Shown here piece after piece: positions 1,569 to 48,876 of a DNA stretch of 64,000 nucleotides. Origin of the DNA: Octopus vulgaris (Eukaryota); assembly GCA_951406725.2 (NCBI GenBank), contig OX597840.1, forward strand, positions 5,766,001 through 5,830,000. Reading direction: 5' to 3'. The translations under genes were made by a program, and so were the position numbers. Positions within the stretch are counted from its first letter, which is position 1. The number at the start of each line of letters is the position of its first letter. The notes beneath the pieces are model-generated. The model did no database searches. It was given only the letters and a program-made list of their open reading frames with translations, and had not been told where the DNA came from.

Positions 1569-2600
1569 ATAATGAAGATTGCTACAATTGGCCTAGACAC
1601 CTACCTGAAAAACTCTGAGGACTGGATGTTAAAACTTGTCTCAAAACATGAAAACAAGAAAGCATCATACTCAGTAACAAAACAGGCAAAGGAATATCTA
1701 AGTGAATTCCGAATACAACAAATTCCGGAATTAGACATACTATAAACAAGCACAGAAAAAGCTAAACACATGAAAACTCGTGCTAAAACTGCGGCCTTAG
1801 ATATTCTGAATGATAAATGGCCAGAAAAACCTCTCAATGGCAAATATCCAAAGAGAGCGAATAATGCAGATGTTGACAAAGCCCTGACCCATCAATGGCT
1901 AATGGCCTCTGGCTTAAAATCTGAAACAAGGGTTTATCATAGCAGCTCAAGATCAATGCCTACCAACAAGGAACTACCAGGCCAACATATTAAAGAACGG
2001 CAGTAGCCCAACGTGTTGTGTATGCCAACAACAAAATGAAACCATTAATCATGTTGTATCCAAGTGCAGTCTTCTAGCGCCTACAGAGTACCTCAACAGG
2101 CATGATAGAGCTGCACAATATATTCACTGGGTAATTTGCAAAAACCTGGACTTGCCCCATGATAAAAACTGGTGGGAACACAATCCACCTCCAGTGCTTG
2201 AAAATGACCACATCTCACTCCTCTGGAACTTCACCATTCAAACTGACAGGAAGATAGATGCAAATAGGCCAGACATTATATTGAAAGACTTCAGACAAAG
2301 AACATGCCTCCTCATTGATATGACTGTCCCAATAGATATAAACGTGTCTGTCAAGACCTACCAAAAACTGAGCAAATATAAAGATCTTAAAATAGAAATC
2401 AGCAAAATGTGGAACCTGAAGACTAAAACAATACCTGTTGTCATAGGTGCCCTGGGAATGATAGCAAAAGTGGCTGATTGCTACCTAACTCAGATACCAC
2501 GAAACCCAAAAATGGCAGAAATTCAAAAGATAGTGCTCATGGGAACTGCTCATATCCCACGCAAAATACTTTCTATGTAATCTCAAGGTTTAAAACAAAC
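1569..2600 (+). mobile_element. 5'-truncated R4/Dong-like non-LTR retrotransposon (CCHC knuckle + restriction-like endonuclease), frameshifted
   Basis: WLMASGLKSET..AAQDQCLPT, C..C...ET..H...C, RHD, LLWNFTIQTD...RPDII...LIDMTVP...K.SKY.DL...IPVVIGALG are typical REL-domain motifs. Confidence 0.85.
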
Positions 2601-13225: not shown

Positions 13226-13309
13226 TGTATATATATAATGTACTCATGTTTTTTGCTTCGGCTTTTTCCATGGGCGCATGTAAGTATCTTATTTATATCC
13301 TTTCATAAG

Positions 13310-13369
13310 TTCTACTGAGGAGGAATGAGTCTTTTATGAGATTAATTCCGAAATTGATTCAATATAGAA
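13310..13369 (+). ncRNA. Diverged hammerhead motif (same family as 47708/48206)
   Basis: CTGAGGA ggaat gagtctt ttat gagatt a attcc GAAA ttga TTC; flanks (ttccatggg...taagta...ttattt; aaattatatg...gcatat.tggc...gccctta) align with the 47.7-kb monomer. Confidence 0.6.
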
Positions 13370-13741
13370 ATAACGAATTTAAAAAAGAATTCTAACGGCC
13401 AGCTTGCCCGACTTCAGTTCTTCGTTTTTTTCTGTAGCAAGTAAATTATATGTGGAAATTGACGATTTATTAGTCTGTTATCAGCATATTGGCTTTGAAA
13501 TAATTTTCTTTAGCCCTTACTTATAAGTTATGTATGTATATATATATATATATATATATATCATCATCATCATCATCATCATCATTTAGCGTCCGCTTTC
13601 CATGCTAGCATGGGTTGGACGGTTCAACTGGGGTCTGTGAAGCCAGAAGGCTGCATCAGGCCCAGTCTGATCTGGCAGTGTTTCTACTGAAACGTGTAAA
13701 TATCGGAAAGATATATATATACATACATATAATATAATATA

Positions 13742-16775: not shown

Positions 16776-18370
16776 CAGTTGCGGCCAAAATGTTCAGAAC
16801 GGCATTGTTTTCGTCAGAAAAGTAAGTATAAGTTTTTATCAAAGTAGTTTTATATTCTATAATTTTCACAGACAATAAATACAACATTAATTGTTATTGT
16901 CTGAGATTTTGGTGTAATTTGAGAGGATAGTACAAAAGTTATGGATGATTTAGTGATTTACTGCAAATCCCATGGCGGCCAAAATGATCAGAACGGTTGA
17001 AAAAATAACAAAATGACAGAGAATACTGGAATTATTTAATATTTAGTGTGAAGCCCTTTAGCTTCAATCACACTCTGACATCTTCGACTGCACGAGGAAA
17101 TTAAATTTTCAATTTCTTGCTGGGTGATCTTATTCCATTCATCCTGAAGGGCATTCCATAATTGCTCGGTTGTTTTAGGATTTCTGGCTTTCGAACGTTC
17201 TCCTAGAATATTCAATACATTTTCAATAGGATTGAGATCTGGGCTTTGAGCAGGCCAATCCATAACAATAACCTTTTCAGCCTTGAGGAAGTTCATGACC
17301 ACCTTAGCCTTGTGACATGGGGCATTGTCCTGCATGAATATGGGTGGTCGCTTAGTTGAATTTCTCAGCACAGGCAAGACATGATCTTTTACAAGTTGTT
17401 TATAAACTCCTGCATTTACCTTTCCATGTAATCGCACCATACGGCCCACACCATCTCCAGATATCATCCCCTAAGCTATGACACTTCCTCCACCGAATTT
17501 AACACTAGTCTTAAGGCACTTAGGCAACAATTTTTCACCTACTTTTCTACGAACGTACCTTTTCCCATCTGAGCCAAATAACATAAACTTAGATTCATCA
17601 CTGAAATGCGCCGTTTGCCATTTTTCTTGAGACCACAACACATGTTCGGTTGCAAAGGTAAGACGACACTTTTTATTCTTGGAGCTGATCAGTGGCTTCA
17701 CTGCAGGTGCTCTTGCTTGTAGGTCATGTTCAACTAAATGACGAGACACAGTTTTTCAAGATAAAGTTTTATTCAATACAATGCTCATTTTCCGAGAAAC
17801 AGCAACTTTAACCAATTTTACCATAGAACGATCTTCTCTCTTGGTCGTTTTTCTTGGCCTACCTGTAAACTTCCTTGCTTCACACGAACCACAATCATCG
17901 TAGACCTTAAGAATACCGTGTACAACACTTTTTGGCTTGTTAACAATCTTTGCAATAGATCCAATACTTAAATTATCCTTCCTTCGAAGCTTAATAATCT
18001 GCTGACGAATTGGTAACGGAGTAAGTGGCATTATATTAACAAAGTACACTGCAAATATTCTTACTAATGTTTAGTAAACGAACCGCCACGTAAACAAATT
18101 CAAAACATTAGAGTTCGTCGGTTAAATATACTAAAACACGGAGTAAAAGCAACCGTTCTGATCATTTTGGCCGCCACGGGTTTTGCAGTAAATCACTAAA
18201 TTATCTATAACTTTTGTATTATCCTCTCAAATTACACCAAAATCTCAGGCAATAACAAATAATATCGTATTTATTGTCTGTGAAAATTATAGAATATAAA
18301 ACCACTTTGATAAAAAGTTATATCTACTTTTCTGACGAAAACAATGCCGTTCTGAACATTTTGGCCGCCA

Positions 18371-27543: not shown

Positions 27544-27589
27544 GACACCTGATGAAGGCTGGAGGGTATATCAGCCGAAACGTTGTGTT
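27544..27589 (+). ncRNA. Minimal type-I hammerhead ribozyme, canonical core
   Basis: gacac CTGATGA a ggctg gagggtatat cagcc GAAA c GTT gtgtt; palindromic AACGTT helix III. Confidence 0.8.
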
Positions 27590-28270: not shown

Positions 28271-30043
28271 GATGATGATGATAATAATAATAATAATAAT
28301 AATAATAAAAGAAGAAGAAGAAGAAGAAGAAGAAGAAGAAGAAGAAGAAGAAGAAGAAGAAGAAGAAAAAGAAAAGAAGAAGAAAGAAGAAGAAGAAAAA
28401 GAAGAAGCAGAAGAAGAAGAAGGCAGAAGAAGGAGAAGAAGAAGAAGAAGAAGAAGAAGAAGAAGAAGAAGAAGAAGAAGAAGAAGAAGAAAGTGTAAAT
28501 ATTGGATGATGCAGAATTAGTGAAACCAGAAAGGAATTCGGTTCATTGGAATCTTCAAAATTTCCTCTGGAATCCCGTGTGTACTTTCTGCTCGGGGTGA
28601 AACATTTCTCCAACGGTAACAATTGCGGATATAGGAAATAAAATCTCGTTGCAGATCGCCCATTTCGCCCTGTGCATAGAACGTTTTTATATGACACCTG
28701 CTGGGCACTAACATACTTCATGTAATTATCTAATATATGATAATTAATAAATATTACACGCGAAGTAGGGGAGAAAAAAAGATCACTAACCGTTTTCGCC
28801 GGCACGCAGATGGTTTTTATGACACCTGCCTATGCTAAATAATTAGTTTAATGAGTACTATCATACTTCGTGTTATGGAGGTGCGTGGCTTAGTGGTTAG
28901 GATGTTGTCCTCGCGATTACAAGATTACACAGACACACAAACACATATATATACATATACATATATACGACGGGTTTCTTTCAGTTTCTGCCTACCAAAT
29001 CCACTCACAAGGCTTTGGTCGGCCCGAGGCTATAGTAGATGACACTTGTCCAAGGTGCCACACAGTGGGACTGAACCCGGAACCATGTGGTTGGTAAGCA
29101 AACTACTTACCACACAGCCACTCCTGCGCCTATAATTATGATTTTATTCAACATATTCCCCTCTCAGATTCACACACTTATTGGAGTGATCCTTCAAGTT
29201 TTTAAGCCCTGTAAAAGAACTCAGTAAGTTGAGCCTTTCACAATACCAAGAACTTTTTCTGCTCTCCCTTTTTTCAACCACCAGAATAACTTGTGAGTTA
29301 TGTAAGGAAAACTTTATAGTACTTAAAACATATGCAACACGGGTTAAATAAAATTCTGAAAGGAAGCATGGATGTTCAGGACAAACTTATGAAAATATTT
29401 TATACGGGTAAAAGGTCAGTCACTAGGCCTCACTGAAAGGTTAAAAATAAATCAATAAAACAGCCAGAGAGGATAAAAATAATTTGACGCTGAGTACTTG
29501 ACAATAAGTAACCGAGAGAAATCATACAATATTTTATGCAGCGTAGAGGGGAACTTGGCTATGCACAAGATGTGGCCCAGGTACTCAACTGTTGCAGAGA
29601 AGTTCTTTCAAGGTTAAGCGAAGGTGGGATTTTTAAATTTTAAATCAAAAAGTAAAGAAGGTTTTCAGAATGTATATATTAATGGTTCTTGTTCTCCCAC
29701 TTTATGAAGAATTTAAATTTTCGTGTTATATGTATCTATGTATAGCGCCATTTCATCCTTATTTCATAACGTCAGCATGGCATAACTTCAGGTAAATACA
29801 TTCGGCTAAAGTAAACATTTTACGAAGTTAAACAATTCTTAGAGAGAGAGAAAATAGTTTACAGTTTAAAAAGTATTCATTTAAAAGGCATGGATTTGTT
29901 CCACAGGAGGAAATAAGCATTCCTACCATGACCACTCCACCTTTTCGGAGAAATATCTTGGACTACCTTAAATCCTTAAAATCCTTTAAAACGTTTTAGC
30001 CCGAAGGCCGCGGCCATGCTGAGGCACCACCGCTGTGCGCTAT

Positions 30044-30161
30044 GCTTACTGCACCTAGGTTTCCCAAGCGGTCACCCATCTAAGTACTCACTAGGCTCGA
30101 CGTTGCTTAACTTCGGTGATCAGACGAGAACCGGTGCTTTCAACGTGATATGGCCGTGAGC
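30044..30161 (-). rRNA. Dispersed 5S rRNA copy (gene or pseudogene)
   Basis: Minus: GCTCACGGCCATATCACGTTGAAAGCACCGGTTCTCGTCTGATCACCGAAGTTAAGCAACGTCGAGCCTAGTGAGTACTTAGATGGGTGACCGCTTGGGAAACCTAGGTGCAGTAAGC (118 nt); no oligo-T terminator. Confidence 0.85.
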
Positions 30162-35503: not shown

Positions 35504-35557
35504 AAAAAAAAAAAATTCTTTGTAATTTTCTCCATAGTTTCAACAGTGACCCGGATA

Positions 35558-35652
35558 TTGAAAGCAACGGTTCTCGTCCGATCACCGAAGTTAAACAACG
35601 TCGACCCTAGTGAGTACTTGGGTGACCGCTTGGGAAACCTGGGTGTTGTAAG
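35558..35652 (+). pseudogene. 5S rRNA pseudogene (5'-damaged, internal deletion)
   Basis: TTGAAAGCAACGGTTCTCGTCCGATCACCGAAGTTAAACAACGTCG...AGTACTTGGGTGACCGCTTGGGAAACC...GTAAGC. Confidence 0.8.
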
Positions 35653-35702
35653 CCTCTCACACTATTGACCTTTATGGTTAATAAAGAGTTAAAACAATAC
35701 CA

Positions 35703-46785: not shown

Positions 46786-47470
46786 AGGAGTTAAGACGTG
46801 TGTATGTATGGTTGTGTGTATGTGTCTGTGTCTCGGGGTTCGCACCCTGTAGGGGTAAATGTTCACAGCCTTAAAATTTACAAACACAATCGTAGTTTAA
46901 ACGTGTGTGTGTATACTCTTTTACTCTTGTTTCAGTCATTTGCCCGCGGCTATGCTGGAGCACCGACTTTAGTCGAAGAAGTCGACCCCAGAGCCTAGTC
47001 TTTGTAAGCCTAGTACTTATTCATCAGTCTTTTGCCGAACCGCTAGATTTCAGGGACATAAACACACTAACATCAGTTGTCAAGTGATGGTGAAGGGGGA
47101 TAAACACAGGCGCAAAGACACAAGACACACACACATAAATATATATACATGACGGGCTTCTTTCAGTTTCCGTCTACCAAATCCACTCTCAATGCTTTGG
47201 TCGGCCCGAGGCTATTGCAGGAGACACTTGCCCAAGGTGCCACGCAGTGGGACTGAGCCCGGAACCGTGTGGTTGGAAGTAAGGTAACCACGCAACTAAT
47301 GCTTAAATATACCTATGGGTATATATGCGTCTATACATATATATATATATGTGTGTGACCGACAGAATAAGTACCAGGCGTACAAAGAATAAGTCCTGGG
47401 TTGGATTTCTTCAACTAAAAAGCGGTAGTCCAGCATGGCCACACTAAAATGACTGAAACAAATAAAAGAA

Positions 47471-47547
<77 letters not shown>

Positions 47548-47707
47548 TGAAGGATAACATTTTTTTCGAAAAAAATTCTTTTCCAAAAAAAAATTTTATC
47601 AATGGCCAGCATATCAAAAATACCTTTAAAGGTTAAATCTATAAACAATTCATAAATAAGGGCAAACGAAAAAATTTCTAATGCCAGATATGCCGATATT
47701 GCCACAT

Positions 47708-47762
47708 GTATCACTGACGAAGGGAGGGCTGTTAGAAGCTAACCCTGAAATCGGTCCGATAT
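47708..47762 (+). ncRNA. Type-I hammerhead ribozyme copy 1
   Basis: gtatca CTGACGA aggg agggct gttaga agct aa ccct GAAA tcg GTC cgatat. Confidence 0.75.
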
Positions 47763-48205
47763 TGTAATAATGGAATGTTTTAGAAATTTCTGTCGACCTT
47801 TTTTTCCAGTAGCGTGCGTATTGTGAAAAAATTATATGGTTAATGGACAATATGTCCAATTTTTCGGCATATCTGGCATTAGAAATTTTTTCGTTTGCCC
47901 TTATTTATGAATTGTTTATAGATTTAACCTTTAATGGTATTTTTTGATATGCTGGCCATTGATAAAATTTTTTTTGGAAAATAATTTTTTTCGAAAAAAA
48001 TTTTATCCTTCATCAGATATAAATTTAAGTGTTCACTTCCGGACTCTTTCACTCTGTGAGAGCATCAGTTCAAATCGTACGTGTCTCGAATGGGCTAGAG
48101 TATTTCTATTTTGGATATATTTGGGGTACTTAATTGTGCTCATGACTTAGTGATTGCTTCTTCCATGGGTATGAGTAAGTAACTCATTTATTTCTTTTGC
48201 CACAT

Positions 48206-48260
48206 GTATCACTGACGAAGAGAGGGCTCTTAGTAGCTAACTCTGAAATCGGTCCGATAT
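48206..48260 (+). ncRNA. Type-I hammerhead ribozyme copy 2
   Basis: gtatca CTGACGA agag agggct cttagt agct aa ctct GAAA tcg GTC cgatat. Confidence 0.75.
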
Positions 48261-48412
48261 GGTAATAATGGAATGTTTTAGAAATTTCTGTCGAGCTTTT
48301 TTCGAGTAGTGTGCATATTGTGAAAAAATTATATGGCTAATGGACAATATGTCCAATTTTTCGGCATATCTGGCATTAGAAATTTTTTCGTTTGCCCTTA
48401 TTTATGAAATTG

Positions 48413-48525
<113 letters not shown>

Positions 48526-48605
48526 ATTTTTTTCCCTCTGTCTTCCCTTCTCGGGATCTTTCCTTCTCCTATGTTTCCGACGAAGAGCGCCGCTCGAACT
48601 TTTCA

Positions 48606-48662
<57 letters not shown>

Positions 48663-48876
48663 TATTCTTTTTATTTGTTTCAGTCATTTTAGTGTGGCCA
48701 TGCTGGACTACCGCTTTTTAGTTGAAGAAATCCAACCTAGGACTTATTCTTTGTACGTCTGGTACTTATTCTATCGGTCACCGCCTAGTTATAGGACGTA
48801 AACGCACCAACATCGGTTGTCAAGCGATGCTGGAGGGGGACAAATAAATACACACACATATATATAAACACGGAAT

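Follow-up and report, generated by a model that had tools for sequence, protein, structure and literature searches.

Two hammerhead ribozymes lying one unit apart raise the question of what kind of element occupies this locus, where its ribozymes would cut and whether a unit-length RNA could be released from it. The first-pass annotation had placed two CTGACGA...GAAA cores within direct repeats of the window (the whole stretch of 64,000 nucleotides analysed here), and both were recovered at 47714-47750 and 48212-48248, exactly 498 bp apart. It had also pointed to a diverged relative, which we confirmed, with its core at 13315-13353 and a helix II reading GGAAT/ATTCC. Judged from its sequence, the locus is probably a non-autonomous, ORF-less retroelement of 498 nt (a non-LTR retrozyme or PLE derivative) that was inserted in a (TA)n microsatellite. 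The hammerhead-bearing features are as follows:

47709..47766, + strand: type I hammerhead of copy 1, with its core at 47714-47750 and helix III at 47750-47760; cleavage predicted after A47761 (AUA).
48207..48264, + strand: type I hammerhead copy 2; core 48212-48248, helix II of 4+4 bp, helix III 48248-48258, predicted cut after A48259.
13238..13528, + strand: diverged solo relative, flanked by (TA)n tracts on either side; core at 13315-13353, cleavage predicted after A13364, 3' end shared with direct repeat 2.

All three sequences contain the type I core CUGAnGA ... GAAA ... UH, with helix I open and AUA as the triplet. A monomer-type hammerhead descriptor found three sites in the window (13315, 47714 and 48212) and, of 100 block-wise dinucleotide shuffles, matched a single one. 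Three sites (27549, 47714 and 48212) were also found by a dimer-type descriptor, which matched none of 100 shuffles. Both descriptors were composed post hoc, with the sites already known. The three hammerhead sites are not due to chance. No Rfam hammerhead model reached its gathering score over the window, and none was among the 11 matches at E ≤10 in 47600-48420. No further copy of the element was found within the window by nhmmer, and a covariance model built from the three sequences recovered its 3 training sites, the 6 other window matches having E >1. Metagenome scans with the hammerhead pattern and with a downstream pattern yielded 0 loci each. A viral scan gave 25 loci, which were taken as chance, none of the 25 passing either descriptor. 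A minus-strand core-like string at 48016-47989 was rejected as well; it fails both descriptors and sits in an A/U hairpin.

Parts of the stretch were present in 20 of the 24 listed runs (four organism codes), and no run contained half of its words. Four of the 24 runs were taken for contig alignment. The contigs aligned to one unit (47912-48412) numbered 4831 in DNA run X1 and 4065 in DNA run X3, which represent two organism codes, and 98 in X9 and 13 in X13, two runs whose RNA status is guessed, with none on record. Head-to-tail joints (48404-48408 to 47913-47942) were found in both X1 and X3, and the listed contigs bridge 47947-48061, 48028-48209, 48154-48263 and 48276-48405, none of those listed spanning the whole unit. 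The joints and the bridging contigs indicate that other copies form a closed unit without an ORF. On this evidence the element is a member of a high-copy, protein-free 498-bp repeat family. Pfam gave no match in any of the seven stop-free stretches scanned (7 of the 23 ORFs listed), and 38 variant positions were spread 13/12/13 over the three frames. A coding fragment of an autonomous PLE was therefore rejected as an explanation, on the lack of a Pfam match, the absence of frame bias and the ORF-less unit of the other copies. The RT and GIY-YIG ORF of an autonomous PLE is absent from the locus and from the bridged copies of the unit.

The reported difference in helix II, AGGG/CCCT in copy 1 against AGAG/CTCT in copy 2, was verified (pair 48221/48242). 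This helix consists of 4 bp, a 2x2 internal loop, 4 further bp and a 6-nt loop. Helix I of the element's hammerhead may have a distal part that includes an internal loop. The earlier statement that the loop differs freely was overstated: the copies are distinguished at no more than 2 of the 18 loop positions, at either end of the 6-nt terminal loop, and the remaining loop nucleotides form the second 4-bp helix, which covaries also in the 13.3-kb relative. The family carries both helix II alleles at high frequency (48221 A>G at 39% and 55% of depth and 48242 T>C at 36% and 60%, in X1 and X3, respectively). Thus, the change between copies 1 and 2 provides no local evidence for selection, as had been proposed, and represents a family-wide dimorphism rather than a local event. 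The frequencies fit an old two-allele pair, the data being unphased; the change favours selection on the structure, but is counted here as one event.

Selection on the structure is nevertheless supported at the family level. When the AUA register discussed below is combined with the inner part of helix II and a dimer-only pair, 53 of 54 cells are paired and 9 of the 18 pairs are double-changed, against 26-43% in slid controls; the comparison involves three sequences only, from which the structure itself was derived, 8 of the 9 double-changed pairs stem from the single comparison with the relative, and the shuffle count of this comparison is not to be read as a probability. The pairing of the relative is kept at only ∼69% sequence likeness. 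It retains all 13 pairs in the AUA register, for which simulation gave P 0.0006 when the columns were random and 0.04 when they were the same, and 8 of 11 in the GUC register (P 0.21 and 0.47).

These two registers differ in the cut site. The GUC cut chosen by the first-pass annotation is probably five bases too early, cleavage being predicted after an AUA triplet, at 47761 and 48259. The NUH rule includes the AUA triplet (PMC3884650). In the AUA register, which sequence comparison makes likely to be the correct one, helix III reads AUCG-GUC-CGAU and helix I UAUCA/UGGUA, and 38 of 39 cells are paired over the three sequences, with six double-changed pairs, versus 28 of 33 cells in the GUC register. 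The previously noted A.C mismatch beside the cleavage site and the ATCGGT helix III do exist, but only in the GUC register, which the relative does not fit. Among the X1 variants that change an A at a frequency of at least 5%, none falls at 48211 or 48259 (31 variants listed of 45 places, all A-changes among those listed), so that the mismatch would be the norm of the family in that register.

The competing explanation retains the same element and makes it an obligate dimer through AUCGGU, cut after GUC at 47756 and 48254 with the A.C at 1.1/2.1 tolerated, or else has the RNA switch between registers. Its palindrome is complete (6/6, with two G.U pairs) in both copies and the relative, and metazoan hammerheads usually have a helix III of this short, palindromic kind (PMC4209133). 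The five or six helix I pairs that follow the mismatch dominate local folding: when folded alone, the window copies prefer the GUC-type helix I (0.74-0.93, five pairs), and the AUA helices score 0.0. The copy 1 homodimer is better by 1.6 kcal/mol in this register (-13.3 versus -11.7 for AUA), copy 2 paired with itself adopts another fold, and the whole-locus transcript gives a probability of 0.0 for the long-range duplex. A diverged subfamily, seen only in loose ends that do not extend into its 3' half, has a G at 2.1 that would pair with C1.1, giving a perfect GUC helix I, and forms a G.U pair in the AUA register. On the other hand, pair 1.1/2.1 is unformed in all three sequences, and helix I is only 72% paired. 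The relative drops two more pairs, would cut at AUU and has a GUC dimer energy of +9.8 kcal/mol. The family variant 48206 G>T (22% in X1 and 17% in X3) gains an AUA helix I pair at the cost of a GUC one. The 6-mer duplex, moreover, is worth just -3.1 kcal/mol. We consider this alternative improbable.

A dimeric ribozyme, as suggested earlier, is plausible; the dimer would, however, form not through the 6-nt ATCGGT with a GUC cut but through an 11-nt near-palindrome (48248-48258) with the AUA cut. The duplex energy of the near-palindrome is -13.9 kcal/mol, compared with the value for the 6-mer given above. It is self-complementary at 10 of 11 positions in all three sequences, with a central U.U, despite two double changes in the relative, and can form either helix III of a monomer (4 bp, triloop) or a 10-bp duplex in a dimer. 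A family variant with an additional G after 48250 (5% in X1 and 4% in X3) makes the palindrome 12/12; for this variant and for 48206 G>T, pairing was read by hand, and the family variants are unphased and were taken from those listed. Unconstrained co-folding gave the AUA dimer for two copies of the relative, and also for copy 1 with copy 2, minus one helix I: only the helix I serving the site of copy 2 was formed.

With cuts in the AUA register, the spacing of the two ribozymes predicts a monomer of 498 nt (47762-48259), as the first-pass annotation had proposed. All 13 core pairs of copy 2 are intact, and copy 1 has a U.C mismatch at pair 1.2/2.2 (T47763 against C47712), one pair from its predicted cut. 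Because of this mismatch beside the cut, release of the monomer from this particular locus by double cleavage is doubtful; the upstream ribozyme is probably impaired, as judged from the model of its helix I. Family members with an intact ribozyme should exist.

The arrangement of the insertion also bears on the nature of the element. Its parts, and the flanks read from the sequence, are the following:

47477..47546: (TA)n, then (GATA)n microsatellite; left flank.
47547..47696, - strand: inverted segment, truncated on its 5' side, that matches 47864-48013 in reverse complement; the outer end corresponds to the second family 3' terminus (∼48016).
47697..47698: 2 nt (TA) that join the inverted segment to direct repeat 1.
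47699..47911, + strand: direct repeat 1, resembling a pseudo-LTR; its 5' truncation lies immediately upstream of the hammerhead.
47762..48259, + strand: predicted 498-nt monomer, from AUA cut to AUA cut; GC 32.7%.
47836..48007, + strand: predicted structured 3' domain; multibranch closed by 47865-47873/47946-47954, and a 21-bp A/U hairpin at 47961-48007.
47912..48016, + strand: tail-like stretch of ∼100 nt between the two 3' termini, at which loose contig ends lie against (TA)n.
48017..48196, + strand: 5' part of the unit, bridged by contigs; conserved CCATGGG and GTAAGT upstream of the hammerhead.
48197..48414, + strand: direct repeat 2; stops at the first 3' terminus of the family, and the relative ends identically.
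48415..48521: (TA)n microsatellite; right flank.

The locus thus holds 1.4 tandem units and an adjoining inverted 150-bp segment. The direct repeats (47699-47911 versus 48197-48408) are 94.8% identical over 213 nt, and the inverted segment, which the first-pass annotation had left unnoted, matches 47864-48013 at 96.7% over 151 columns. The difference in divergence between the direct repeats (11/213) and the inverted segment (3/149) is not significant (P 0.17), and this copy appears to have decayed by ∼2-5%. The (TA)n tracts adjoining the element at both ends had also been overlooked; both insertions of the family in the window sit in (TA)n, and a target-site duplication is unreadable because the flanks are microsatellites. 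No ORF was found in the 5' part of the unit (48017..48196).

Loose contig ends enter (TA)n at ∼48412 and ∼48016, which defines two alternative 3' ends of the family ∼100 nt apart. One terminus is used at each end of the locus: repeat 2 stops at the first, and the inverted segment reaches the second with its outer end. The sequence TATA(A/G)ATTTAA follows each terminus (47917 and 48018), as was noticed post hoc; TATAAATTTAA is not enriched across the window (6 matches versus 7.8 expected), only its location at both termini being notable.

The layout is that of PLE insertions, with partial tandem pseudo-LTRs and an adjoining inverted 5'-truncated copy, as described by Craig et al. 2021 (PMC8557442). 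The same paper describes a PLE tail of 30-40 bp that is often present at one end only, and a bias for microsatellites that hides target-site duplications. For a PLE from Anolis, the tail in vitro was found to correspond to the spacing of two internal sites at which the RT starts, and AT-rich DNA is cut by the enzyme (PMC11167929). By analogy, the ∼100-nt gap between the two termini may correspond to such a pair of start sites.

Two observations were made on inverted repeats around the insertion. Transcription through the locus would give a 150-bp RNA duplex from the inverted segment (47547-48013) with a hammerhead in the loop, a possible substrate for editing or small-RNA production. In the flanking DNA, a SINE fragment is duplicated in inverted orientation (47355-47472 versus 48662-48781); over 119 columns the two copies differ by 3 substitutions and 1 gap (BLAST identity 97.3%), and other near-full-length SINE matches in the window reach only 78-86%. 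This duplication is about as old as the element's own inverted segment. It may have arisen in the same event, by a template switch onto downstream target DNA, or by (TA)n fold-back.

This second inverted duplication of similar age, which involves flanking DNA and not the element, together with the self-complementarity of (TA)n tracts, would favour a different history, in which a satellite-like or dispersed repeat with a fossil hammerhead was amplified at the DNA level (by unequal crossover or (TA)n fold-back) and the inverted segment was produced, like the SINE duplication, by DNA repair. However, two precise 3' termini against (TA)n recur among independent copies, one of these termini coincides with the outer end of the inverted segment, and pairing has been maintained between sequences that are only ∼69% alike. 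Amplification at the DNA level is therefore quite unlikely, and we retain the interpretation as a retroelement.

RNA folding beyond the ribozyme predicted pairing of 66% of the 498-nt monomer when taken as a circle, with z -4.4 relative to 60 shuffles. The region 47836-48020 has z -5.8, none of 200 shuffles being equally stable. The closing stem pair 47873/47946 is C-G at this locus and U-A or U.G in the family. In the 21-bp hairpin, all three listed stem variants stay paired, and the most variable site lies in the loop. At the listed positions with a pair probability >0.6, pairing is kept at seven of seven (47946 jointly with its partner); several variants at weaker predicted pairs (0.3-0.55) disrupt pairing. 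The inverted segment starts at the 5' edge of the closing stem of this 3' domain, which, according to the folding model, may be an RT-recognition domain.

These features can be combined into the following putative cycle. The + strand of tandem copies would be transcribed. Folding of the hammerhead would be weak in the monomer, with a helix III of 4 bp closed by a triloop, and better in the dimer, in which two 11-nt palindromes would make a 10-bp duplex. As suggested by the structure, cutting after AUA would yield 498-nt units, which may then be ligated to circles, perhaps by a host ligase; monomers of the axolotl and mussel retrozymes were circularised by host ligase in vitro (PMC7229834). The anatomy of the insertion suggests that an autonomous PLE would supply the RT/GIY-YIG protein to nick (TA)n, that cDNA synthesis would begin at one or the other of two internal sites with TATA, spaced by ∼100 nt and adjacent to the 3' domain, and that the RT would read through the ribozyme site on a circular or uncut multimeric template. 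A subsequent template switch would create the partial tandem and the inverted 5' piece. The match between the anatomy and the PLE pattern described in PMC8557442 argues for this mechanism by analogy.

Whether a 498-nt circle is an intermediate at all can be questioned. The element could be a PLE derivative copied from uncut linear multimers, with the hammerhead kept for another or an occasional role. Both ribozyme sites at the locus were read through, and insertion by the purified PLE system (PAc) in vitro does without hammerhead cleavage (PMC11167929). In addition, copies 1 and 2 carry different family alleles at the compensatory helix II pair; since the chance of such compensation arising after insertion is ∼0.02 by our estimate, separate template units, and not two rounds on one circle, are the probable source of the two repeats. 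This point is countered in part by the alleles that both repeats share and that are rare in the runs examined (48275 G and 48370 C), with the window possibly coming from another species than the runs; unequal repeats would also be expected from a heterodimeric circle or from template switching. The double changes in all three helices, by contrast, imply that the catalytic fold is under selection, a stable circular fold is predicted for the entire unit, and related metazoan repeats accumulate as circRNA (PMC7229834). Copying from uncut multimers is a tentative alternative that deserves serious attention.

As to expression, the contigs of X9 and X13 reveal neither RNA ends nor circles. One X13 contig (48164-48388) shows 8 differences from the window, all of which are explained by listed variants outside the ribozyme, and it is therefore identical to copy 2 across the ribozyme. 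It crosses the cut site in an uncut or re-ligated state and bears 11 loose 5' letters, which we take to resemble a cDNA template-switch oligo. This single contig gives a weak hint of + strand cDNA, its 5' end probably reflecting strand invasion and not a start site.

The CCATGGG and splice-donor-like GTAAGTA upstream of the hammerhead are conserved at 48164-48182 and 13261-13279, in sequences ∼69% alike. PLEs often carry an intron in the region upstream of the hammerhead. No GT..AG intron around the hammerhead (GTAAGT at ∼48175, also in the relative) was seen among the 15 of 20 joints listed, and one X13 contig retains the GTAAGT site; contigs show presence only.

The window as a whole is microsatellite-rich animal DNA with 204 tandem-repeat rows. 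One SINE-like repeat occurs in many copies (28 matches); these repeats presumably resemble octopus SINEs. A minimal PLE hammerhead of another family is located at 27544-27589 (+), with an extra A after position 9, an ACGU palindrome and a 5-bp helix I; this hammerhead (27549) sits in a 180-bp fragment beside (AAT)n and has a single copy in the window. Degenerate hammerhead-like remnants were noted at 48577 (+), 49285 (-), 32106 (-), 3729 (-) and 58064 (+), four of the five belonging to one GAAGAGC..GCTCGAAA type and the fifth differing. Judged from these sequences, several PLE-type families seem to be scattered through the window.

Other elements include dispersed 5S rRNA at 30043-30161 (-) (104.9 bits), with a decayed copy at 35536-35654 (+) (54.8 bits), and a LINE C-terminal fragment at 1918-2580 (+) (zf-RVT, E 3.5e-05) that recurs in similar form near 33-34 kb and near 55 kb. 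A fragment of a Tc1-like transposase (DDE_3) lies at 17036-17470 (-). Two likely host-gene exons lie on the minus strand (40625-40096 and 8156-7645), with a signal-peptide-like start, cysteine-rich sequence and visible splice sites. Pfam gave no convincing match on either exon; the second ends in what resembles a stretch of peptidase C13 type. Between the two exons, antisense to the gene, lie the 13.3-kb relative and the 27.5-kb hammerhead; the main element is ∼6.9 kb upstream.

The class of element is unsurprising, hammerheads in PLE repeats and tandem retrozymes being well described. A search for octopus or cephalopod hammerhead or Penelope elements yielded no description of this family in the literature covered, most subscription papers lying outside that coverage, and the family thus looks undescribed for the cephalopod group within this literature. 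For the giant squid genome, 235 hammerhead loci have been counted (PMC6962438), and Penelope expansions have been noted in octopus (PMC8967140). Animal retrozymes of 51-972 bp were proposed to be non-autonomous PLE derivatives by Li, Clavereau and Pollet 2026 (10.64898/2026.07.22.740005), who argue for PLE dependence from homology and co-occurrence; of their Xenopus retrozyme dimers, 1 of 9 was cleaved. The inverted 5' segment, the twin termini and the (TA)n target described here constitute insertion-level evidence for that proposed dependence. The corrected cut site also alters any bench test.

According to the study of axolotl and mussel retrozymes, a blocking mechanism must exist in metazoan retrozyme circles (PMC7229834), and the competing GUC fold is a candidate for the mechanism needed. 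This leads to a speculative and rather unlikely extension, in which insertions of this very abundant family would be a direct record of the PLE mechanism and the hammerhead is bistable: the GUC-type fold would stop the monomer circle from cutting, AUA dimers of tandem transcripts would cut, and the separate, covarying 3' domain of a circular 498-nt RNA would position a PLE RT at two start sites ∼100 nt apart, each TATA(A/G)ATTTAA priming on nicked (TA)n. If true, this reading would answer, in a testable way, two questions of the retrozyme literature, namely which RT moves animal retrozymes and how their circles escape self-cleavage.

Among known systems, the pattern of one hammerhead per unit extends to satellite DNA. 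The pDo500 satellite has, as its name implies, a unit near 500 bp. Found in Dolichopoda cave crickets, it likewise carries a hammerhead per unit with compensatory stem changes (PMC2837043); it is described as satellite DNA, unlike the present element, and the likeness is by description only. The ribozyme resembles the repeat-type hammerhead of Aedes aegypti (PMC3088659, Fig. S8) and the dimeric newt and ASBVd hammerheads in its palindromic stem III/loop III and 10-bp dimer stem, and differs from them in an 11-nt palindrome with a central U.U, an AUA triplet and an overlapping GUC register. In the minimal PLE hammerhead, helix III is absent or 1-2 bp, an extra nucleotide lies between 9 and 10.1, and the pair G10.1-C11.1 is present (PMC4209133), whereas both window copies have a 4-bp helix III, no extra nucleotide after 9 and A10.1-U11.1.

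Compared with PLEs (PMC4209133; PMC8557442; PMC11167929), the element lacks an RT/GIY-YIG ORF and has an extension of ∼100 nt rather than 30-40 bp; it shares with them the pseudo-LTRs, the inverted copy, two alternative ends, the microsatellite target and the hammerhead in the repeat. Its unit of 498 nt exceeds the 170-400 nt of the retrozymes of Cervera and de la Pena 2020 (PMC7229834) and lies within the range of the 2026 preprint, and the locus consists of 1.4 units and an inverted segment with no long array, unlike those of metazoan retrozymes. With metazoan non-LTR retrozymes (PMC7229834; Li et al. 2026) it has in common a non-coding unit, a type I hammerhead per unit, a GC content below 50%, a self-paired predicted circle, hammerheads one unit apart, high copy number and a proposed PLE dependence. 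At the sequence level, the element thus has the characters of a non-LTR retrozyme and appears to be of a known kind.
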